Source: Eledone cirrhosa
Lineage: Eukaryota
DNA: 64,000 nucleotides
Assembly: GCA_964016885.1 (NCBI GenBank)
Contig: OZ024743.1
Span: 314,650,001 to 314,714,000, forward strand
Reading direction: 5' to 3'
Each line of letters opens with the position of its first letter. Positions within the stretch are counted from its first letter, which is position 1. Both the position numbers and the translations under genes were made by a program. Shown piece by piece: positions 20,399 to 49,930 of this stretch. Below the pieces are notes generated by a model. That model ran no database searches. It worked only from the letters and a program-made list of their open reading frames with translations, and was not told the DNA's origin.

Positions 20399-21814
20399 TT
20401 TCTTACTCTTTTACCTGTTTCAGCCATCCGGCTGAGGCCATGCTGCTACACATTTTATCTCCAGCTTGTATATGTTGGCCACTGGTGTAAGGGGGAGTTG
20501 CTGCTGCCTTTAGTTTTCCCTCGAGTCTTGCTGTGGGCTCATCCGGGATCCTGGATAACCAGGTGTCGAGATGTTTCTTGAAGACATCCACCTCCACGTC
20601 ATGCAAGTCTCTCAGATCCCTCGGCAGCCTGTTGAAGAGTTGAGGGCCCTTGAATCCCAGGCTATTTCAATACCTGCTACTTATTCTAGATGTGGAAGAC
20701 GGGACCTTTGGCACCACACAGTGACGTCCTGTTCGACGTTTGGTCCAGCTCCCAATGCCAAAGTTTGGTGCTAGTCCTCCAGGATTTTACACATGTACAT
20801 CACTGCGTATCTCTCCCGTCTTCGCTCCAGGGAGTAGAGGTTCAGTTCCTTCAGCCTCTCCCAGTAGCTTGTCTCCCTCATCTTGGCAATCCTCTTGGTG
20901 TAGCTTCGCTGGATTGCCTCAAGCTCCGTGTTTAGTTTGACACTATGGGGTGACCACAACTGTGAGCAGTAGTCCAGACGGCTTAGGACAAATGTCCTCC
21001 ATAGTGTCAACATGGTGTCTCGATCTCTTGTCCGGAAAGTCCTCAAGATCCAGCCAGCGAGTCATCTGCACATTGTCGCCAATTTTATGATGTTTAAGGA
21101 AAATATGCATCATCGCTCATGTCTATGCCCAGCTCTCGTATCGATTTTGACACGGGGATATCAGTCCCTCCTGGTCCTGTGTAGTTGTGTTCCACTATAT
21201 TTGTGTTTGCAGGTTTGTTTGGAGGTTTGTATTGTAGGGCTTGGAATTTGCCAGCATTAAACTGCATGTTGTTTTCTTCCGCCCATTTGTATATGGCATC
21301 CAGATCCTGCTGTAAAAGAGCAGCGTCAGCCGGGTTTTTGATTGCCTGTGCTACCTTAGTGTCATCAGCATAGCTAGTGAGGGATGTTGTTGTATGTACT
21401 ACAGAGGGCATGTCTGAGAGAGCCACCAAAAACCGTAGTGGTTCCAGGACTGTCCCCTGAGGCACCCCACTTGTTAGTGGTGTTTCCTTTGAGAGGGCCC
21501 CATTTGCTGCGACTGCCTGGCTTCTGTCCCTTAGGAAGTCATGCAGCTACTCACCTACTTTTCCAGTTATGCCGAGTCCGTGTAGGTTCTGACATATCAT
21601 TCCGTGGTCGACCTTGTCAAAGGCCTTCGCAAAGAAAGATATATCACGTCCACATGTGAGCTGTGTAGTAGTTGTCTCAGTACCCAGTCGTAGTGATGTA
21701 GCAGCTGTGTAAGGCAGCTTCTTCCTGTGCGGAAGCCATGTTGCGTGCTAGTCAGGCGGTCATTTTCCTCGTGGAAAGTGATCAGTTTCTTTCTGACGAC
21801 TCGCTCCATGACCT
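20397..21814 (-). mobile_element. 5'-truncated copy of the same CR1-group LINE (RT C-terminal half + 3' UTR)
   Basis: [49 protein letters not shown]; near-identical to 42340-43565; keeps a segment (about 20585-20800) that is deleted in the long copy. Confidence 0.93.
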
Positions 21815-22331: not shown

Positions 22332-22402
22332 TATTTTATTATGCGCATTTCAAAAGCAAATATCATCATGCGATGACATTTGCGTTTTCGTCAGATAAAA
22401 TA
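22332..22402 (-). ncRNA. Type I hammerhead ribozyme motif
   Basis: Minus strand: TATTTTAT-CTGACGA-AAACGCAAATGTCAT..ATGATATTTGCTTTT-GAAA-TGCGCA-TA-ATAAAATA; perfect 8-bp stem I, palindromic stem III. Confidence 0.85.
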
Positions 22403-22424
22403 GGGAGACATGTATATATATTCA

Positions 22425-23390: not shown

Positions 23391-24159
23391 TTTATATATA
23401 TATATATACTGTTCATTGTTTGCGGAATGAAATTGACAGGTAAATAATGCGTTGGAAGGTAGGTAGATTTAAATGGTATATTCTCAATCGAGGGCCTTCT
23501 CCGTTTCGATTTAATGTAACTTGAGAACATCAAGTGGAAAAGAAAGGGCTTAATGTTAGTACTATACCTTAAGATTAATATGTTTGTGTCTGTTTGTACG
23601 TGTGTTTGTAATGTGATTTAGGAGTATATATTACTGAAAATATAACTACACACACTCATACGCATATATATAATTATATTTATATATATACATACATATA
23701 GGAACTATACACACACACACACACACACTCTCTCTCACATATATATACATACATACACACATACATGAATTGGCTTCTCTCCTCCGCTTCTCTCTTCCAC
23801 ATAAAATCTTAGTGACGTACAGTTATCAATGACGTAAATGAGAATATGTAGATAATAATGTGGGGATAGAAATAATATTCTCACTTTACGACAAAGTTAT
23901 AACGTCATCGACGCATTTATCAACATCATCACCTTTATCATCGTCAACATCGTTCATTTCATTCTCATAAACATCTTCTGTCGTTAAGAAACGTTATTAC
24001 CACCATTATCACAACCATCACTATTACCAAGAGCATCATCAACGCAAACCTCACTAATATTTTCTCATTACACTACTCATCATAATCATCCTAAATACCA
24101 GCGCTGTAAACACCATTTTTATGATCTCACAATCGCCCTCCTTTTACTCAAAATAATAA

Positions 24160-24607
24160 TAATTGTTTCTTCTTTAAGCACAAGGCCAGCAATTCGAACG
24201 TGAGGGGAAGGTCGATTAAATCGACCTCAGTGTGTTACAGGTACTTTATTTTATCGACCCCGTAAGGATGAAATCCTAAGCCAACCTCGGCGAGATAGGA
24301 TCTCAGAATGTAAAGGGCCGTAACTATATGCATAGAGCATATTGACCGAAGCTTTGCCGATACTGCCATTTAACCGTCCATAATAATATTGATTTCTTGT
24401 ATAGGCACAAAGCCAGTAATTTAGGGGAAGGGGAAATTCGATTAAATCGACCCCAGTACGTTGCCTGTGCTTTATTTTATCGATCTCGTAAGGATGAACG
24501 TCAAAGTTATCCTCGGCGGGATTTGAACGCAGGCCGTAAAGGGGTGTAACTCTAAGCTGCAAAGCATGGCGTCCGACTCTCTACGGATACTGCTAATCCA
24601 CTGCCCA
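24160..24607 (-). mobile_element. Two tandem SINE copies
   Basis: Two reverse-complement cores, each with CCGATACTGCCA-like A-box ends. Confidence 0.85.
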
Positions 24608-24743
24608 TAATAATAATAATAATGTTTTCCTTTTGTACGGTTTCTCTAGCAACCGGTTGCTAGGCGAGGCGTGTCAAGTTGCCTCAGATCAGTCCCTGAT
24701 CTCAGTGGCTCAGGATATCATGTGATAATAATATTAATAATAA

Positions 24744-29119: not shown

Positions 29120-29422
29120 TCTTGACTGGTACTTTTTATCGATCTTGAATGGATGGAAGGCAAAGTTGGCCCTGGCAGGATTTGAACGCAGGGCATTCAG
29201 AGAGCCTAAACTCTTATAGTAAACACTTATAAATAACTGTTTCTACTTTTTGGCACAAGGCCAGCAATTATTCCAGTACATTACTGGTACTTTATTTTAT
29301 CGACCCCGTAAGGATGAAAGGCAAAGTTAACCTCGGCGGGAATTGAACTCAGATCGTAAAGGGACGTAACTATGCTGGAAAGCATAATCCAACCCTCTAC
29401 CGATACTGCCAATTCACCGCCC
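29120..29422 (-). mobile_element. Partial and full SINE copies
   Basis: Family core and A box on the minus strand. Confidence 0.85.
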
Positions 29423-30309
29423 TAAACACTTATAAATAATGAACCGTACATAGTAAATTTATTTATAGAAATACTTTTACTTTCAGAACCGGCACGAAAT
29501 TGTAGAGTATTCTTAGAAGTGGTTGTATCTGGATTAACGAAATTGCATATATTTGTTTATAGAAATAGTAGTACCCGAAACACAGCAGACACTACAATTA
29601 GTGGAAAGTAATGAGAATGGTATTCTCAAAAACACAAAAATATACTCTCCAGACAAAATAATTTATACATATTGATAGTTTTGTGCGTAGAAGTTCATGT
29701 ACTTGTATGGAACAAAACACTTGAAAATGATTGGTTGAAGTGATGGAACCTAGTTGATTTAAATTGTTGATTTCTTTATACCGGTTAATCAGGAATAAGG
29801 TCAGTGTTCATAGCTCTTTCCAAGACATCCGAGACTGACGGGATGGACTGAAAAATGTATCCTCCATCCGTAGAACTGGGTCAAGAGTTTGCACAATTTA
29901 TGACTTTGCCAAATGATTTAAAATGCGTTGTGGGGTAGCTAAAACGGGTGACTCATTAAATCTGCCTCCAAGGCATTTAATTTTGATTTCAACATTCTGA
30001 TTTAACTCTTGTTATACCAAACTACTTGCAACCAGTACCTAGTTATACGATACATCAACATTTGCTTTAAGATTTCGTATCTATTTATATATTAACACCC
30101 TCCATATATTTTCTGAATGTACGTTTATTAAATTATGTTTCAATTATATTGAAAAATAATTAATATATTACACAATTCTAAAAAATTCATGAATACTTTC
30201 AAAATGACTTGACGATCACAGTAGCGCCTTTCATTAGCACATATGGTAAGGAGAGGGTTAATTATGCGCCCGATGTCTACTTCTGGCTTGACGTTATACT
30301 TGATATACT

Positions 30310-30708
30310 GATTACTAATTTAGGCACAAGGCCAACATTTTGTTGGGAAGAGGATATCTGATTATACTGACGCCAAAACATTACTGTTACTTTATTTGAT
30401 CGTCCGTGAAAGGATCGAATGCAAAGCTGACCTCAGAGAGTAGAATCGGAACAAATAGTACTATGTGTTTGTCAAACGATCTCACCACTATGGAAAATCA
30501 CAGTCCTTTATACTTAATATAATTGTTTCTACTTTAGGCACAAGGCCAGCAATTACCCAGTGCATTACTGGTACTTTATTTTATCGACCCCGTAAGGATG
30601 AAAGGCAAAGTCAACCTCGGCGGGATTTGAACTCAGATCGTAAAGGGACGTAACTATGCTGGAAAGCATGGCGTCCGACCCTCTACTGATACTGCCAATC
30701 CACCGCCC
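30310..30708 (-). mobile_element. Diverged SINE and a near-consensus SINE (30520-30708)
   Basis: Family core, B box GGATTTGAACTC and A box on the minus strand. Confidence 0.85.
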
Positions 30709-31388
30709 TTATACTTAATATAATACGTGCAAGGCATGTATTGATGTTGATTCATAATGCAATTCATATAAGTTACCATCGGCTATGTGGTTTGTATTTT
30801 CAATGGTTACTAAAAAAGATAAATACGATTCAACTATAATTAGCATATGTATGATATTTAAATGGTTACAAAAATGACCGTAGTAATAGTAGATCATAAA
30901 TTACCCTAAGTCAACCTCTTTGTTTAGACAACTAGCTACTTGCTTACATTTTTCTATTATATGAAAAGAAAAAAGAAAAAGAGTAAAAATGACCGCGGTT
31001 CTTTGTCGTAGCGGTTAACACACTCGCTCAGCATTTGTGAGATGTGAGGTTCGCAAGACCCTCTGTCCACCTCTGCCGTCCTTAGTAGTAGTTTACCCGA
31101 GATTCCCAACTAGTGTTTATCAACATGGACATTTGCCTTGGCATGCACATATTTCAAATTATCCCAGAGTTTAATTCAACAGCTGTGTTTATATACAGGA
31201 GAGAGAGAGAGAGTGTTTGTGTTTGAACCTGAGGGAGAGAGATAAGACAGGGGCATTTGTGAGGGGTTTTGGAAAGGAAAGATAAATCTGGAGAAAAATG
31301 TATTCTGAGTAAATAAATAAAGAATTAGAGAAATACATAATATGAATGAGGAGTAAGGCAAATAGAAACAGGGTGAGGGAGGTATTAT

Positions 31389-35135: not shown

Positions 35136-35197
35136 TATATACGAGAGTATTGTAGTTTGCTTGAAGCATTGTGGAATAATAAGGTAAATTTCTTTAA

Positions 35198-35420
35198 GTC
35201 GTTTGGAAACCTCGACAATGCAGATGGGTAAATCTTCGGGTAACAAGATCCGGTGGGGGAGAGAGAGATGTAAGTGGGTGTACAACGAGATGCGTAGCGT
35301 ACGTTACAGTCTTATACACGCTACGCATCTCAACGTACACCCATTTACATCTCTCTCTCCACCACCGGATCTTGTTACCCGGAGCTTTACGCATCTGCAT
35401 TGTTGAGGCTTCCAAACGAC
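35198..35420. repeat. Long hairpin, 103-bp arms with 17-nt loop (MITE/foldback-like)
   Basis: 35198-35300 vs 35318-35420 about 90% complementary; mirror ORFs METSTMQM/MEASTMQM. Confidence 0.9.
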
Positions 35421-35427
35421 ATATATA

Positions 35428-35978: not shown

Positions 35979-36117
35979 TAAACAAGTAAATTATTAACAT
36001 AAACATGTAAGTATGTTTTTTAAACGGTGCGCGAGTTTGAAATTAGAAATTAGAAATTATAAGCTTTCACCGTATTTTACATTCGTAAATTAAACTTGAT
36101 AAAAACTTAATTTACGA

Positions 36118-36492
36118 ATGTTAATTTACGAATGTAAAGTTATAACTGACACCAATTCCTTCACCTATTTTGGCTCCACTCCCACCTCCTTTAAAGCTCG
36201 TCTTTATAATCATCTTTCGTCTTTTAAATATAAACTTAAAAGAACCAACACGGCTCTCTCAGAACTCATATGGTCCTTGAAAGACACAAGTATTAAATAT
36301 AACATCTCTTGGAAAAAGGTTTCCTCTGCTTACTCATACTTGAACAGTTCTCTATCCAAGACTTGCAATCTCTGTCTAAATGAAAAATTTACCATTATAT
36401 CTAATTTAGATTCTATAATAAATAGACGCAGTGACTTGTTTTCTATCTGCTTGCATAAATTTCACAGAACTTTCCATAAAGTATACAGCTAA
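36118..36492 (+). pseudogene. PLE GIY-YIG endonuclease C-terminal fragment
   Basis: LIYECKV..TYFGSTPTSFKARLYNHLSSFK..TALSELIWSLK..CNLCLNEKFTI..INRRSDLFSICLH; followed by a pyrimidine-rich 3' region and an HHR at 37351. Confidence 0.88.
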
Positions 36493-37350
36493 TATCCTAA
36501 ACTTTATCAATTCCGAATCCTCTTCTCAAAGCCACATATATATACATATATACTTCTTTAAAAATATACCCATCTTTCTAGCTTATTTCAAAGTTATTTA
36601 TTATATTCTATATCACTCCTATTCATCACTTCCCTTTTTTATTTTTATTTTCTTTTCTTTTTCTTTTAATTTCTAACCTCTATTCCGTACCTTTTCTCAC
36701 TGTGCCTAACATAGAAACAATTATTACACAATACACTATATTTTTACCTTATATCACGTTCAAAAAATCCTTCGTAAACATAAACATTTTTTTTTTTACG
36801 TTAGGTTATTCATCCTCAATTCATTATTTTTTTCTCACTTTCATCTAACTTATTCATGCTCATCTCACAATATATCCTTACTTACATTACTTCTGTTCTT
36901 TTAATAATACATATCAACATTTTCTTTCCATCGCACATATTATTAAACGCTTATATATTATTCTTAATACATATTAACAATTTCTTTTCATCGCACATAT
37001 TATTAAACCCTTCAATATACAAACCTTAACTTTACATTATTTTTCTCTTGGTTAATTTTCAAATTCTTTTAATTTATACATTATCTTCCAACGGTTTTTC
37101 AACCTCTCTATGTAAAACAATATATTTTTCTCAGTTATAAAAGCTATCTCTCTCTCTCTATCAGCCATCTCTCCTCCTATCTCATGCTTACTCATTATAC
37201 TCCCCCCCCTCCACTTTTTACTCTCATCTCCTCCTCTTTTTCATCCTTTCCAACCCCCCCCCTCACATTTTTTTCCCCAAATATTGATTTAAAACTGATT
37301 TAAAACTGCACTATCCACAAGTGTTTTTAACCTTCATATCATGTCCTCCT

Positions 37351-37410
37351 ATTTTTATCTGATGAAAACACAAATGTTATTGCATGATGATATTTGTTTT
37401 TGAAACTAAT
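37351..37410 (+). ncRNA. Hammerhead motif of the same family as 22332, 3' part lost
   Basis: TTTTAT-CTGATGA-AAACACAAATGTTATTGCATGATGATATTTGTTTTT-GAAAC, then (TA)n; ends the PLE 3' region that starts at 36118. Confidence 0.65.
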
Positions 37411-37925
37411 TAATATTTATATATATATATATAAATATATATAAATATATATATATACAATATATATATATATATATAACTAACCACATTCACTGAACCA
37501 GAACAATTCTCCCATCCCTTTCTCTTGACCATTATCTTTTACTTATCAAAAAATTCTCTAAAAAGGCTACAGAATGGATTTCCAAATAAGGGCACAAAAA
37601 TTTAATGAAAATTTGTTCACGTGACAGCCATAATTTCATTTATAACCAACCAAAAAAAAGCCTTCGTGAGCCTCCTTTTTTCAAGTAAAAAGAAATTCAA
37701 ACACTCACTCATATATGAAAAAACAACCTGTGACAACCCCCCCCCCTCTGATTTGAAGAACTATTGTAACGCGAACTGGCGCGAAATTTATTATAATTAT
37801 TGACAAACCAATCAAATTACTTCTCGAAAAACCTGGCATTACGAGCCACTTTTTCCATATAAAACAAGTAACATTCAGAGACCAACCAGATGTGAGAAAA
37901 ACCACAGACCCTCCATCTCAACTCA

Positions 37926-37963
37926 CCTTTTGAAAAGCAGAAGAACTGCGAAACCGGTAAAGG
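37926..37963 (+). ncRNA. Minimal type I hammerhead, U3-A8 core variant
   Basis: CCTT-TTGAAAA-GCAG(AAGAA)CTGC-GAAA-CCGG-TA-AAGG, followed by AATAAA. Confidence 0.82.
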
Positions 37964-38047
37964 AACCAAATAAATATATATATTTATAAAAAATAAAAAA
38001 TAAAAAAATAAGACTCCAGTTGCATTTTCGATTTCATCTCTTTTTCT

Positions 38048-40037: not shown

Positions 40038-40245
40038 GTTCATTATTTAACGATCGTTTCTAGGATATATATGTGTTAGAATTGGCATGCATATTCAACA
40101 GATCTATGTACAAAATTATACAAAATTATACAAACTATCAAAATTAAATATACATACCAAACACATACCAAACACATATATATGCATAATATACATAAAT
40201 ATACATACCAAACACATATATATGCCGTCTTCAGAAATAATGAAC
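40038..40245 (-). ncRNA. Type I hammerhead with giant stem II insertion
   Basis: Minus strand: GTTCATTATTT-CTGAAGA-CGGCATATATATGTGTT..(about 130 nt)..AACACATATATATCCTA-GAAA-CGATCG-TT-AAATAATGAAC; perfect 11-bp stem I. Confidence 0.8.
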
Positions 40246-40525: not shown

Positions 40526-41783
<1,258 letters not shown>

Positions 41784-41784
<1 letters not shown>

Positions 41785-42186
41785 ATTAAGTTAAAAGTAT
41801 ACATCCACATATGTATACTGAAATACTAGTATGCATATAAATACACACACGTATACATATGTACATGTACCGAGTTTTTCACTGGACACTTTACTGTGAG
41901 TGTCTAGCCGGAGGATGGGTATATATTGCTGATGAGATGTAATAACATCGAAACTAGTCCAATATTCCTGTCTGGCTCTCTGGAGAATAGAGGAAAGGTG
42001 TTTCCTTGAAAACCCGTATGACTCTAAAACCCGGTTTGTCTGTTTGGTTACATACAGACTAGCTAGACACTCACAGTAAAGTGTCCAGTGAAAAACTCGG
42101 TACATGTACATATGTATACGTGTGTGTATTTATATGCATACTAGTATGTCAGTATACATATGTGGATGTACACTTTTAACTTAATT
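41784..42186. mobile_element. 403-bp element with 125-bp inverted arms around an HHR-containing spacer
   Basis: 41784-41908 vs 42062-42186 reverse complement, with 2 mismatches seen. Confidence 0.85.
41923..41965 (+). ncRNA. Minimal type I hammerhead with a perfect consensus core
   Basis: ATATTG-CTGATGA-GATGT(AATA)ACATC-GAAA-CTAG-TC-CAATAT; GUC cleavage triplet; palindromic ACTAGT stem III. Confidence 0.92.
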
Positions 42187-42253
42187 GTTTAAGCGTCAGT
42201 CATACAAAAGTGAGTTACAAACGAAACGAAATTTAATTTCGTTTCGTTATTTG

Positions 42254-42309
<56 letters not shown>

Positions 42310-42386
42310 TGTGTGTGAGTGTGTATATACCTACGTATATACTCTTTTACTCTTTTACCTGTTTCAGCCATCCGGCTGAGGCGATG

Positions 42387-45218
42387 CTAGGGCAGCACCA
42401 TTGTTGCTACACATTTTATCTCCAGCCTGCATAGGTTGGCCACTGCTGTAAGTGGGAGTTTGTTGCTTTCTTCCCTTAGGTTTCCCTCCTGCATTGCTCT
42501 GGTCTCATCCGGGATCCAGGATAACGAGGTGTCAAGATGTTTCTTAAAGATCACTGCGTATCTCTCCCGTCTTCGCTCCAAGGAGTAGAGGTTCAGTTCC
42601 TTTAGCTTCTCCAGTAGCTTGTCTCCTTCATCGTAGCAATCCTCTTGGTGTAGCTTTGCTGGAGTGCCTCAAGCTCCGTGGTTAATTTGACACTATGGGG
42701 TGACCACAACTGGGAGCAGTAGTCCCGGCGGCTTAGGACAAATGTCCTTCAAAGTGTCAACATGGTGTCTCGGTCCCTTCTCCGCAAAGTACTGAAGATC
42801 CAGCAAGCGAGTCGTCTGCACATTGTCGCCACTTTCATGATGTATGAGGAAAAAGATGCATCATCGCTCATGTCTATGCCCAGGTCTCGTATCAATTTTG
42901 ACAAGGGGATATCGGTCCCTCCTGGTCCTGTGTAGTTGTGTTGTACTATATTTGTGTTTGCAGGTTTGTTTGGAGGTTTGTATTGTAGGGCTTGGAATTT
43001 GCCAGCATTAAACTGCATGTTGTTTTCTTCCGCCCATTTGTATATGGCTTCCAGATCTTGTTGTAAAAGGGCAGCGTCAGCCGGGTTTTTGATAGCCTGT
43101 GCTACCTTAGTGTCATCAGCATAGCTAGTGAGGGATGTTGTTGTATGTACTACAGAGGGCATGTATGAGAGAGCCAACAAAAGCAGTTGTGGTCCCAGGA
43201 CTGTCCCCTGGTGCACCCCACTTGTTATTGGTGTTTCCTTTGAGAGGGCCCCATTTGCTGCGACTGTCTGGCTTCTGTCCTTTAGGAAGTCATGCAGCCA
43301 CTCACCTACTTTCCAGTTATGCCGAGTCCGTGTAGTTTGTCACATATCATTCCATTGTCGACCTTGTCAAATGCCTTCGCACAGTCAAGATGTATCACGT
43401 CCACATCTGAGCTGTCTACTAGTTGTTTCAGTACCCAGTCGTAGTGATGTAGCAGCTGTGTAAGGCAGCTTCTCCTGGGCGGAAGCCATGTTGCGTGCTA
43501 GTCAGGCCGTCATTTTGCTCGAGGAAAGTGATCAGTTTCTTTCTATCGACTCGCTCCATGACCTTACTGATATGCGACGTCAGGGAGACAGGCCTATAAT
43601 TTGTGGCCTTCGCTCTGCTACCTCCTTTATGGATAGGGCATATTGTGCCTTCTTTCAGCTCCCTGGGTAGTACACCGCTAGCCAAGGAGCTTCTGAAGAG
43701 CATCTTCAGTGGAGTTGCTAAGGCCCGCTTACATTTTTTAAGAGAACTGCTAGGAATCCCTCAGTTCCAGCAGCTGAGTCTCTTCTAATTTCATCTATGG
43801 CGTACACCACATCCTCCTCCCTTATGTCTATGTGGTTGATAGTTGCCATTTCTTCATGTAGTGTTGTGGCATCAAATAACTCCTCTGGCTTCGTTATTTG
43901 CATGAGCCTCAGTGGACATATGAACACACTTTTGTACTGTTCGTTCAGTATTTCACATATCTCTTGGGGGTTTTCGGTTAATTTTCGGTTAATGGAAGAG
44001 TGGCCCAATCTTGCAGTGTACCGAGGCAGTTTCTTTTTCAAATTTAAAGAAGGCCTTAGGGTTTGTTTTGATGTTTTCTATGGCCCTGTTCTCTTTCTTT
44101 GCCCTCTCATTCTCATGGGAAAGCTTGAGTGCAATCTCGGTGCCAAGTAGTGCACATTTCAAATAGGATTCCTTCTTGCTTTTGTTTTCTTGTTGACTAT
44201 TCAACTGGTTTGAGAACTTGGTTCTACATCTCATAAGGATTTTCCTATCTCTGGGAATAAGATTTTTGTGTCTGTTTGTTTTTTTTTCTCCGGGACAAAC
44301 TTTTTGCATATAGTGTGTATCGTTGTCATGAAGTGTTGAAATTGTATGTTAGTCTCTGGTGTGGCAGTGTTTTCACTCCATGTTTGCTTCCGGATTTCTC
44401 TCTTAATCTTTTTCCAGTTAGCCTTGTAGAAGTTAAGGCTGGATAACGTCCCAAAGCTTCTTGGTGGTTTTGTCTCTGTTGGTTCTCTCGGACCACATAT
44501 CATTAGCTCTACTAAGTTATGATCCGAGAGAATTGTTGGTGCCACCTTTACATTGTGGATGAGCATTTCGTTGTTTGTAAAACAGAGGTCCAGGACATTT
44601 TCGCCTCTTGTTGGGAGGAGTATTGCTTGCTCCATGAACAGCCTGTATGTGAGGGCCAGCAGGGATTCCGTCTGTCTCTGTTCTATTGACGTCATTCCAG
44701 GGAGGTAGGTTGAAGTCTCCCAACAGTAGAATGTTGAGACCCTGGTCCAGTTTGTCAAGGAGCTCTTCTATCCTACTTAGGCTAATCTCAAATTTACCCT
44801 CATGACTGGGGGCATCGGGCGGCCGATATGTGACACATATTACTGTCTGTAGTTGTTTCATATGTACTATCAGTGTGTCACAGACTGAGTTTGAATGTGT
44901 CAACAGTACAATTGGTGTGACATCTTCACGGATATATAGAGCAACCCCACCGTGAGTTCTCTCCTTCCTGTCCGAACGAAATACAGTATATTTTGGTATA
45001 TGTATTTCTGTATCTGCTATAATGCTTATCAGGTGCGTTTCGGTTAGTGCCATGCATAATGCTTGATTGCTTATGGCTAAGTCTCCCAGGTAGGACATTT
45101 TACTCATGTTACTGAGATTCACCAGGCCTCTGACATTCAGCAGCAGCACTGGTGTGACTTTTGGGGTGCCAGTAATGGCTGTCGGTATGACACCTGGTCT
45201 GGCGTCAGCGGCGGCCAC
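42387..45218 (-). pseudogene. LINE ORF2 (APE + reverse transcriptase) broken by several frameshifts and an internal 3' deletion
   Basis: ORF pieces 44517-45218, 44231-44758, 43989-44309, 43718-44041, 43428-43703, 42749-43216 and 42387-42581 are collinear parts of one EN-RT protein. Confidence 0.9.
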
Positions 45219-46009
45219 TCTGGGTCCCTTAGCTGTGGTGGTCTCGAGTGCTGGTGTGGGTGAACCTGGCTCTGGAAACGATGCAGCCAGATCAGCTGTC
45301 CCAAAATCTTCTCCGCCATCACTAAAAAATGTTTCTGCTCTGCTGCTGCCATCTGTATTTCGTCGGCATGTGCGTGCCTTCTCCTTGTTGGTGCGGCACG
45401 CGCGGCATCAGCATACTTCTGGAGCGGCTTATTTCGGCTTTGGCTGGGGCATGTAGCGCGAGTAGGATGGGCATAGTTCGTTTGAGACCTGGGGTGGGCG
45501 AATCTGCATCCCATCCCTGACTCTCCATGCCAGCAGGTTCTGTTCTTGAAAAACTTGCACATTATTTGGGTTTTTTTGCTCCCAGTGTCTTGGTGCTTTC
45601 TGTTCTTCCTTAGAACAGTTGTCCACTGGTCCCTCTGCGCTTGGTTCTCCTTCGGAAGGTGATTTCGCTTTTCACCTTTACCTTTTGCTTGTTGGTTGCC
45701 CGGCCTGCCCTCCCTGATTGTGGCAGAGAGTATCTCCTCTCCCTTCTCTTCGGTTTTCTCCTCCCCGAGGACACGGCTTAGCATCGCCATATGTGGCACT
45801 ATGAGGACATACGCCTTCTCAATTTCTTTTCTCTTTCTCTCTATCTGTGCCAGGGTCCTCAGAAACCCATGGCTTTTCAGGTTCTCCGCCATCATTTTGT
45901 TTGGTGGAGACCCATCAGCCATGGTCCACCCCTTGATCAAAACCGCTAGTTCCATCTTTGACCAGTTTCGCTGACTCCTAATTTCACCTTTTTCCTGTAT
46001 GCAGTCCAT
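45137..46009 (-). CDS. LINE ORF1 (about 290 aa, open) with Myb/SANT trihelix-like N-terminus and CCCH zinc finger
   Basis: ATG at 46009 (MDCIQEKG); NWSKMELAVLI...MAENLKSHGFLRTLAQIERKRKEIEKAY; CKFFKNRTCWHGESGMGCRFAH; lies directly upstream of, and overlaps, the APE frame. Confidence 0.7.
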   Translation of the reverse strand: MDCIQEKGEIRSQRNWSKMELAVLIKGWTMADGSPPNKMMAENLKSHGFLRTLAQIERKRKEIEKAYVLIVPHMAMLSRVLGEEKTEEKGEEILSATIREGRPGNQQAKGKGEKRNHLPKENQAQRDQWTTVLRKNRKHQDTGSKKTQIMCKFFKNRTCWHGESGMGCRFAHPRSQTNYAHPTRATCPSQSRNKPLQKYADAARAAPTRRRHAHADEIQMAAAEQKHFLVMAEKILGQLIWLHRFQSQVHPHQHSRPPQLRDPEWPPLTPDQVSYRQPLLAPQKSHQCCC

Positions 46010-48280: not shown

Positions 48281-49930
48281 TCCTCTATAACATTAATGAC
48301 TCATTTCCCCACCACAAAGGAGGTCTTTATCGGGATGATTGTCTATTGTTATCTTACAATCTTAGCAATTCCAATATAGAGAAGAACAAAAAGCAAATTA
48401 GAAAATTCCTGAAGGACTATTACAGCCTTAACATTACTTTTGAAAACATTTCAAAATTAGCTAATTTCCTTCATGTCACCTTAGATACCTCTACGAATAC
48501 TTATCAACCCTACCACAAACCTAACCAGAATCTACATTATGTACATTCACGATCTAACCACCCAGGCTCTATACTCAAGGACTTAGTATATAACATTTCT
48601 CTTAGACTTTCTAAATTATCTTCCAATGAAGATATATTTTAAAATAATGCACCCTTCTACAACGAGGCCTTAACTAGAAGTGGATATAAAGAAAAAAATC
48701 TAATATATCTACAACACTACTATGGAGCAAAACATAAAACCTAACAAAAACTACAAACACCAAAAAATACCATTGAAACGAATAACTAAAGTGGTTATTC
48801 CTATTACACCAAATAACCGAAAAACCACAACCACTATTACTACACGATCTATGACCAATTTTATCAACCCACATGTGAATACCAAGCACTCAAACTCTCA
48901 TATCTACCCCAAAATAACACCAAATACAACCACGATGATTTACCAAATTCCACAAATAAGGACACTAACCATAGGAACTCTTCTACAACACAACACAATA
49001 ATATAAGGGATAATAAAAACTTAACTAAAAACCATAAAAGAAACATAACATCGTACAACGCACCCTTCAACCTGCAAACTATTGGACAAATTCCCCCCAA
49101 AATTCTTTGAAATACTACATAAACATTTTCCACCAAACCACAGATACCACCAAATATTTAACAAATATACTGTTAAATTCTCATACTCTACATCAAACAA
49201 TCTCAAACAAAAAATAAGCAACTACAACATTTATAAACTTAAAAATAATATGACTACACCACCGCAACATAATTTAAATAGGACTGCACCTTTTAAAAAG
49301 ACAAATAAGACAATCCTTCAACCTAGAAAACACAATCACCCAAATCACCAACACAAAAACAACAGATCACAAAATTACAATACAACTCTAGCACCAAACT
49401 ACCCACAAAGCAACCTTCATTATCCTGCTATCATTAATTACAATAGGAATAGCTCAAGGATAAATGAGAATACTATAGACACCCCCCAAAACCATCTTAC
49501 GTATGGCTGTAATTGCAGAAATAGAAGCATTTGCCCCTTAAATGGAAACTGTTTGATTAATAATGTAATATATAAATGCATTGTGTCTACTACAGACTCC
49601 AACAAAACATATAGAATCGACATCAAACACATATAAGAAAAGATTTTTTGCACACTCTAGTAGTTTTAACAATACTAAACTAGCAAACACCACATCTTTA
49701 GCTGAAGCGGTAAATAATTATAAAAAGAAAAAAAATAGATTTTAAGTTATCGTGGAACACCATTCTACAAAAAAATCCATATCTTGGGAACAGGAGGGAA
49801 TGCAGATTATGTTCAGGAGAGATCTTGGAAATTACTAAATCTAAGGACGATTTATTAAATAAAAGACAGGAATTGATCATATTCTGTAATCACCGTATAC
49901 GAAAAACATTTAAAAACTATAAACCTAGTT
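48280..49930 (+). mobile_element. Penelope-like retroelement remnant (RT C-terminus + Cys linker + GIY-YIG endonuclease), 5'-truncated and frameshifted
   Basis: GLYRDDCL, FLHVTLD, YHKPNQNLHYVHSRSNHP, RLSKLSSNEDIF, HKHFPPNHRYHQIFNKYTVKFSYS, CNCRNRSICPLNGNCLINNVIYKC. Confidence 0.88.

Follow-up and report, generated by a model that had tools for sequence, protein, structure and literature searches.

A hammerhead-bearing foldback between (TA)n arrays in Eledone cirrhosa, read as a truncated, partly inverted retroelement insertion

Structure of the foldback unit

The locus lies in a 64,000-nucleotide stretch of Eledone cirrhosa DNA (the window), about 30% of which is simple repeat (19183/64000 bases masked). 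Two 125-base arms (41784-41908 and 42062-42186) form an ungapped alignment at 123/125 identity, with two mismatches (41799/42171 and 41822/42148; 1.6% divergence), and enclose a spacer of 153 bases, just as an earlier note on this DNA had described them. The left arm has no tail and directly adjoins a 1.2-kb (TA)n-type microsatellite (40530-41783), the left target flank. Past the right arm come 71-73 bases of non-repetitive sequence (42187-42257, + strand), which contain a 13-bp hairpin at 42220-42248 with a folding equalled in 2 of 500 shuffles; from about 42258 the sequence is again (TA)n and then (TG)n (42258-42330, the right target flank). (TA)n thereby encloses the unit on both sides, and the extension past 42186 occurs on its right side only. 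The element limits proposed earlier, 41784-42186, hold at the left edge, which abuts (TA)n, but the insert continues for about 72 bases beyond the right arm.

The simplest unit is accordingly 41784-42257, consisting of (i) a sense copy of about 350 bases (41909-42257, + strand), in which the hammerhead region, the right arm and the tail follow one another, and (ii) a shorter inverted copy of the end of that sense copy (41784-41908, - strand), which is tail-less and apparently 5'-truncated. Six-frame translation of 41784-42257 gave frequent stops and no coding frame, and tblastn with PLE proteins found no match in 41784-42259, where the RT and GIY-YIG coding frame required of an autonomous PLE was likewise not found. 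An ORF start crossing the tail, as in some PLE pLTRs, is missing from the unit. The locus holds a single unit with no tandem hammerhead units of 170-400 bases, and the arms have no further copies within the window. Because the unit lacks both an ORF and tandem copies, it was assigned neither to the autonomous PLEs nor to the retrozymes; we infer that the noncoding sense copy is the 3' end of either a pLTR or a retrozyme unit.

The hammerhead motif and its predicted transcript

The core of a type I hammerhead occupies 41923-41965 (+ strand), inside a larger domain with an extended helix I and an internal loop (41913-41974; Rfam HH9 alignment and folds). It is composed of a 6-bp helix I, the core CUGAUGA, a 5-bp helix II with a 4-base loop, GAAA, CUAG and UC, with a predicted cut after 41959, and helix III is a single pair capped by the palindromic CUAG. 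All the type I features are present, namely CUGANGA, GAAA, NUH, helices I and II and the G10.1-C11.1 pair. A strict motif scan, with thresholds chosen after this motif had been seen, matched the window once, at 41923-41965, against 0.0 in 100 Markov surrogates, and loose hammerhead-like matches numbered three against a surrogate mean of 0.03 (100 Markov surrogates). In a 106-base Rfam scan, Hammerhead_HH9 (RF02275) aligned over the whole model at 41911-41981, sharing the core, helix I with its internal loop and helix II (E 2.8e-7), but the 33.2 bits lie below the gathering score of 52 and helix III is five bases shorter than in the family; Rfam at gathering scores gave no matches across the whole window. 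This is the motif that the earlier note had called the cleanest hammerhead in the window.

ViennaRNA, in which tertiary contacts are outside the model, placed the open-core hammerhead fold 2.2 kcal/mol above a fold that sequesters the core by pairing it with CUAGU, and gave the open core with helices I and II 0.5% of the ensemble. The helix III pairing of two hammerhead copies was calculated at -6.2 kcal/mol. Dimer cleavage is reportedly the subject of a study by Lunse et al. For metazoan type I hammerheads in which helix III is short and palindromic, PMC4209133 and the review PMC6765202 describe activity as dimers, and single minimal motifs are reported to show no cleavage; the helix III of the shrimp PLE hammerheads in the former is likewise small and palindromic. 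In the axolotl retrozyme hammerhead, which has a one-pair helix III and a palindromic tetraloop, tertiary contacts are kept and 6% of the monomer is reported to be cleaved per hour (PMC7229834). A lone hammerhead with a one-pair helix III would be expected to cleave poorly unless two transcripts pair via CUAG, and the copy at 41784-42257 is probably inert.

An extra base between positions 9 and 10.1 is given as a mark of minimal PLE hammerheads (PMC4209133), and the motif at 41923-41965 does not have it. Because this base is missing and the helices are of canonical size, the motif appears to lean towards the retrozyme type over the minimal PLE type. The available accounts of metazoan non-LTR retrozymes (axolotl HHR_Amex1, PMC7229834; preprint 10.64898/2026.07.22.740005) offer further likenesses: a noncoding unit of about 350 bases with low GC, canonical-size helices I and II, features of a loop-loop contact, a palindromic tetraloop on a helix III of one pair, and solo monomers comparable to the single unit here. 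The present locus differs in having no tandem copy and in carrying an inverted end, which those descriptions do not mention.

The earlier note had further suggested that self-cleavage opens the transcript into a dsRNA with defined ends, a possible Dicer or ADAR substrate. A read-through transcript is predicted to form a 125-bp duplex of -208 kcal/mol with or without cleavage. A cut at the predicted site, 51 bases away from the left arm and 102 bases away from the right one, would leave long structured overhangs of these lengths, and the outer end would be set by transcription. The duplex ends would thus not be defined by the cut, which leaves the "defined ends" without support. Since a single hammerhead is also expected to cleave poorly, the case for a Dicer/ADAR substrate is weak, and the longer foldbacks nearby would yield more dsRNA than this unit.

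Other foldbacks, repeats and searches beyond the window

From the cut site at 41959 to the arm end is 227 bases, more than the 125 bases that the inverted copy covers, and this is why the hammerhead falls in the loop. Two long foldbacks of the window contain a hammerhead-like 3' half that is 53 bases from the arm end in one (552-base arms) and 106 bases from it in the other (504-base arms), and so falls within the arm in both. With such differing distances and arm lengths, loop versus arm placement comes down to the length of the inversion. The earlier contrast, a hammerhead in the loop here and in the arms of the other foldbacks, is right about the loop, but the arms of the two others hold no intact hammerheads, only the 3' half (GAAA, a palindrome, UC) without CUGANGA.

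Three of the four (TA)n-embedded foldbacks examined have a one-sided extension (41784-42257, 54396-56134 and 35141-35423), a count from which the foldback at 61274-61565 was excluded as lying outside (TA)n and belonging to a dispersed repeat family. The foldback at 54396-56134 has 504-bp arms (500/504), a microsatellite-rich loop of 690 bases and a one-sided tail of 33-40 bases with a small hairpin, the same layout as at 41784-42257; its hammerhead-like 3' half, GAAA CCGG UC, is present in both arms without CUGANGA. That at 17444-18632 has 552-bp arms (529/551) around a loop of 86 bases and no clear tail; a degenerate motif resembling a hammerhead is seen about 50 bases from each outer end. 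At 35141-35423, between (TA)n arrays, arms of about 106 bp (95/106) are accompanied by a one-sided extension of about 56 bases, and no hammerhead was found. The foldback at 54396-56134 is itself flanked by two direct copies of a unit of about 330 bases (54040-54375 and 56185-56510; 91% identical), each between (TA)n arrays. Both copies have a CUGANGA core and a helix I of 8 bp, but their helix II is atypical; they are possible retrozyme monomers. A 50-base end in common (90%) was also seen beside microsatellite at 14512-14561 and 37917-37966, with a TTGAAAAG...GAAACCGGTA motif resembling that in the 54396 foldback.

PLE coding fragments were detected in the window at 36121-36459 (E 4e-18) and 48319-49923 (E 2e-15) by tblastn with P0001, a protein taken as PLE RT plus GIY-YIG from its motifs. 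Pfam returned no families on three PLE fragments of the window, and their identity therefore comes from the tblastn match to P0001. The fragment at 48319-49923 is a broken coding region with the RT end, a cysteine-rich linker, which we take to be of the Neptune type, the endonuclease and an asparagine-rich stretch; upstream of it, 47970-48045 matches 40163-40238 in reverse. At 36076-37407, a PLE endonuclease fragment is inverted over a short stretch at its 5' end; its 3' region is long and AT-rich and terminates in a hammerhead-like motif whose helix II is very long. A second copy of this motif lies at 22332-22404 (- strand). A LINE at 42351-45407 (- strand), with AP endonuclease and RT (Pfam), is directed at the foldback on the strand opposite to the hammerhead, and a 1-kb second copy of it, 93% identical, occupies 20407-21811. 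There is also a SINE-looking dispersed family of 200-250 bases with many copies, some as inverted pairs (473-667, 9058-9305, 24152-24624, 29225-29440, 30512-30724, 53403-53597, 61183-61565 and 63571-63813). Compared on both strands with 10 other parts of the window that are PLE-like or bear a hammerhead, the sense copy gave weak AT-rich alignments only and no parent element. Two of the 20 comparisons were equalled by just 2 of 100 shuffles and were dismissed as AT-rich low-complexity alignments.

Beyond the window, the strict motif was found at no locus in contigs from metagenomes, viruses and prokaryote genomes, collections ill suited to a search for an animal repeat. A relaxed core motif occurred at eight metagenome loci, none of which, by eye, had flanks resembling 41784-42257, and seven of which, again by eye, had no reverse-transcriptase frame. 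At the remaining one (L002), the core motif follows the reverse-transcriptase coding region by about 260 bases on the same strand. Positions 1-2240 of L002 hold an RVT_1 match (E 3.2e-10), then CCCTAA repeats and the hammerhead core, and the locus looks like a telomere-associated, endonuclease-free PLE. At L004 and L005, the core sits within direct repeats of at least 624 and at least 458 bases (spacing 1902 and 727) without an RT frame; these are possible non-autonomous pLTR elements. Among 23 listed sequencing runs, 20 appear to contain part of 41870-42250, as judged by shared words (39 in all); the word fraction is 0.51 in one run and 0.46 to 0.08 in the others, and no RNA runs are among these listed holders.

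Origin of the unit and its meaning

The unit at 41784-42257 is best explained as a single truncated insertion for which a Penelope-like retrotransposon supplied the proteins, a reading to which we give a probability of roughly 0.7, and it is likely an ordinary truncated, partly inverted insertion and no new kind of element. The PLE GIY-YIG endonuclease would nick the AT-rich (TA)n target, and the PLE reverse transcriptase would then start at the tail end and copy the 3' end of an RNA that was uncleaved or had been re-ligated. This RNA would be either the pLTR of an autonomous PLE or a retrozyme unit, itself non-autonomous. Reverse transcription would halt 51 bases beyond the ribozyme cut site, and a second, shorter cDNA, beginning about 72 bases further in, would join head to head and become the left arm. 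That the insert covers the cut site is consistent with a template of either sort, uncleaved or re-ligated.

Three traits of PLE insertions are present at the locus: an adjacent inverted copy, a microsatellite target and a terminal hammerhead whose helix III is short and palindromic. The one-sided extensions on three of the four (TA)n-embedded foldbacks, the two PLE coding fragments of the window and the core motif behind the reverse-transcriptase region of L002 also speak for the PLE reading. PLE insertions are described as often 5'-truncated, with an adjoining inverted 5'-truncated copy and a tail of 30-40 bases at one end, and as carrying hammerheads in their pLTRs and preferring microsatellites in a way that obscures TSDs (PMC8557442). 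In rotifer and fly elements, the inverted pLTR is reported to be shorter than the direct one and the tail to be optional on one copy (PMC3846280), and the inverted repeat is said to differ in size among copies (PMC2377424). An anole PLE studied in vitro cut AT-rich DNA and mainly used uncleaved RNA as the template, with two RT start sites bounding the tail, according to PMC11167929. PLEs are reported as abundant in one microsatellite-rich shrimp genome (PMC3124438), and the preprint 10.64898/2026.07.22.740005 traces animal retrozymes to PLE pLTRs and reports solo monomers. The closest known systems are truncated EN+ PLE insertions (Penelope/Poseidon, Neptune), which, as far as PMC8557442, PMC3846280 and PMC2377424 describe them, share with the unit a sense copy with a shorter adjoining inverted copy, an extension at one end, a type I terminal hammerhead, an AT-rich or microsatellite target and no discernible TSD. 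The unit differs from them in having no ORF remnant and no tie to a named PLE, and two differences count directly against the PLE reading: the tail of 71-73 bases is about twice the published 30-40, and the extra base of minimal PLE hammerheads is missing. The failure to find a parent, the unclear tail at 17444-18632 and the seven core-motif metagenome loci that lack a reverse-transcriptase frame count against it as well, as does the inversion junction (41908/41909), which falls just 4 bases upstream of the extended helix I, a margin that retains the whole ribozyme domain and is not required of a random truncation. Of the element proposed earlier, "young" and "PLE-derived" agree with the 1.6% arm divergence, the hammerhead type, the microsatellite target and the one-sided tail; the scenario that the earlier note had named as its refutation, a 5' inversion of a pLTR-type end, is now favoured, and a fixed arm-hammerhead-arm unit is disfavoured.

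Such a fixed unit would be a recurring non-autonomous foldback retroelement, with arm, hammerhead, arm and tail transcribed together and re-inserted by PLE proteins in trans. The position of the junction 4 bases upstream of a full ribozyme domain, the intact retrozyme-type hammerhead and the low arm divergence speak for it, and pLTR sequences alone are reported to direct insertion in trans (PMC3846280). We nevertheless consider it unlikely, given the single copy in 64 kb, the unrelated arm lengths of the other foldbacks (106, 504 and 552), which fit one-off inversions, and the 125-bp duplex, which would presumably be a poor RT template. Still less probable is its fuller form, a fixed multicopy foldback retrozyme moved by PLE proteins, whose 125-bp hairpin transcript would be opened in the loop only when the helices III of two transcripts pair, making it a concentration-dependent switch for dsRNA pathways.

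A TSD of 41784-42257 is not resolvable because (TA)n lies on both flanks, and if the unit is taken from arm to arm, the TSD candidates are limited to the palindromic TA, AT, AATT and TTAA within the arms. A MITE with terminal inverted repeats of 119-125 bp around a captured hammerhead fragment, inserted at TTAA or TA, would explain the long near-perfect inverted repeats around a short noncoding core, and trimming the ends by 5 or 6 bases does place TA or TTAA on either side. However, these candidates arise automatically, being palindromes inside the inverted repeat, and the trimmed ends start with AGTT or GTTA and not with the CAG/CCC-type starts of Tc1/mariner and piggyBac. The 72-base tail would moreover be left as an orphan between two TA arrays, and the arm sequence does not recur elsewhere in the window. 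The MITE is therefore very improbable, and the suggestion that a TIR element had captured the ribozyme gained no positive support; a literature search on hammerhead ribozymes in MITEs turned up plant papers.

Least probable of all is an element with split or subterminal inverted repeats, of the DIRS-like or Helentron-like type, or else a foldback that arose locally in repair or in the assembly. The asymmetric inverted repeat with a 3' extension and 3' hairpin does resemble those groups, and a window with so much simple repeat is error-prone in assembly. However, the loop holds no stretch that could pair with the arm end or with the tail (94-262 of 300 shuffles score equally), as the internal region of DIRS-like elements can with their outer ends; hammerheads are not known from either group, and the arms differ by two clean substitutions.

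Read as a truncated PLE insertion, 41784-42257 is one more small PLE-type insertion in a PLE-rich genome and has little wider import, and it offers a compact example of the inverted-copy-plus-tail signature. Its long hairpin tail could help to map RT start sites if the family were collected. If the unit did prove to be a fixed multicopy one, it would represent a new form of animal retrozyme in which self-cleavage is tied to dsRNA, relevant to specialists in RNA and transposons.
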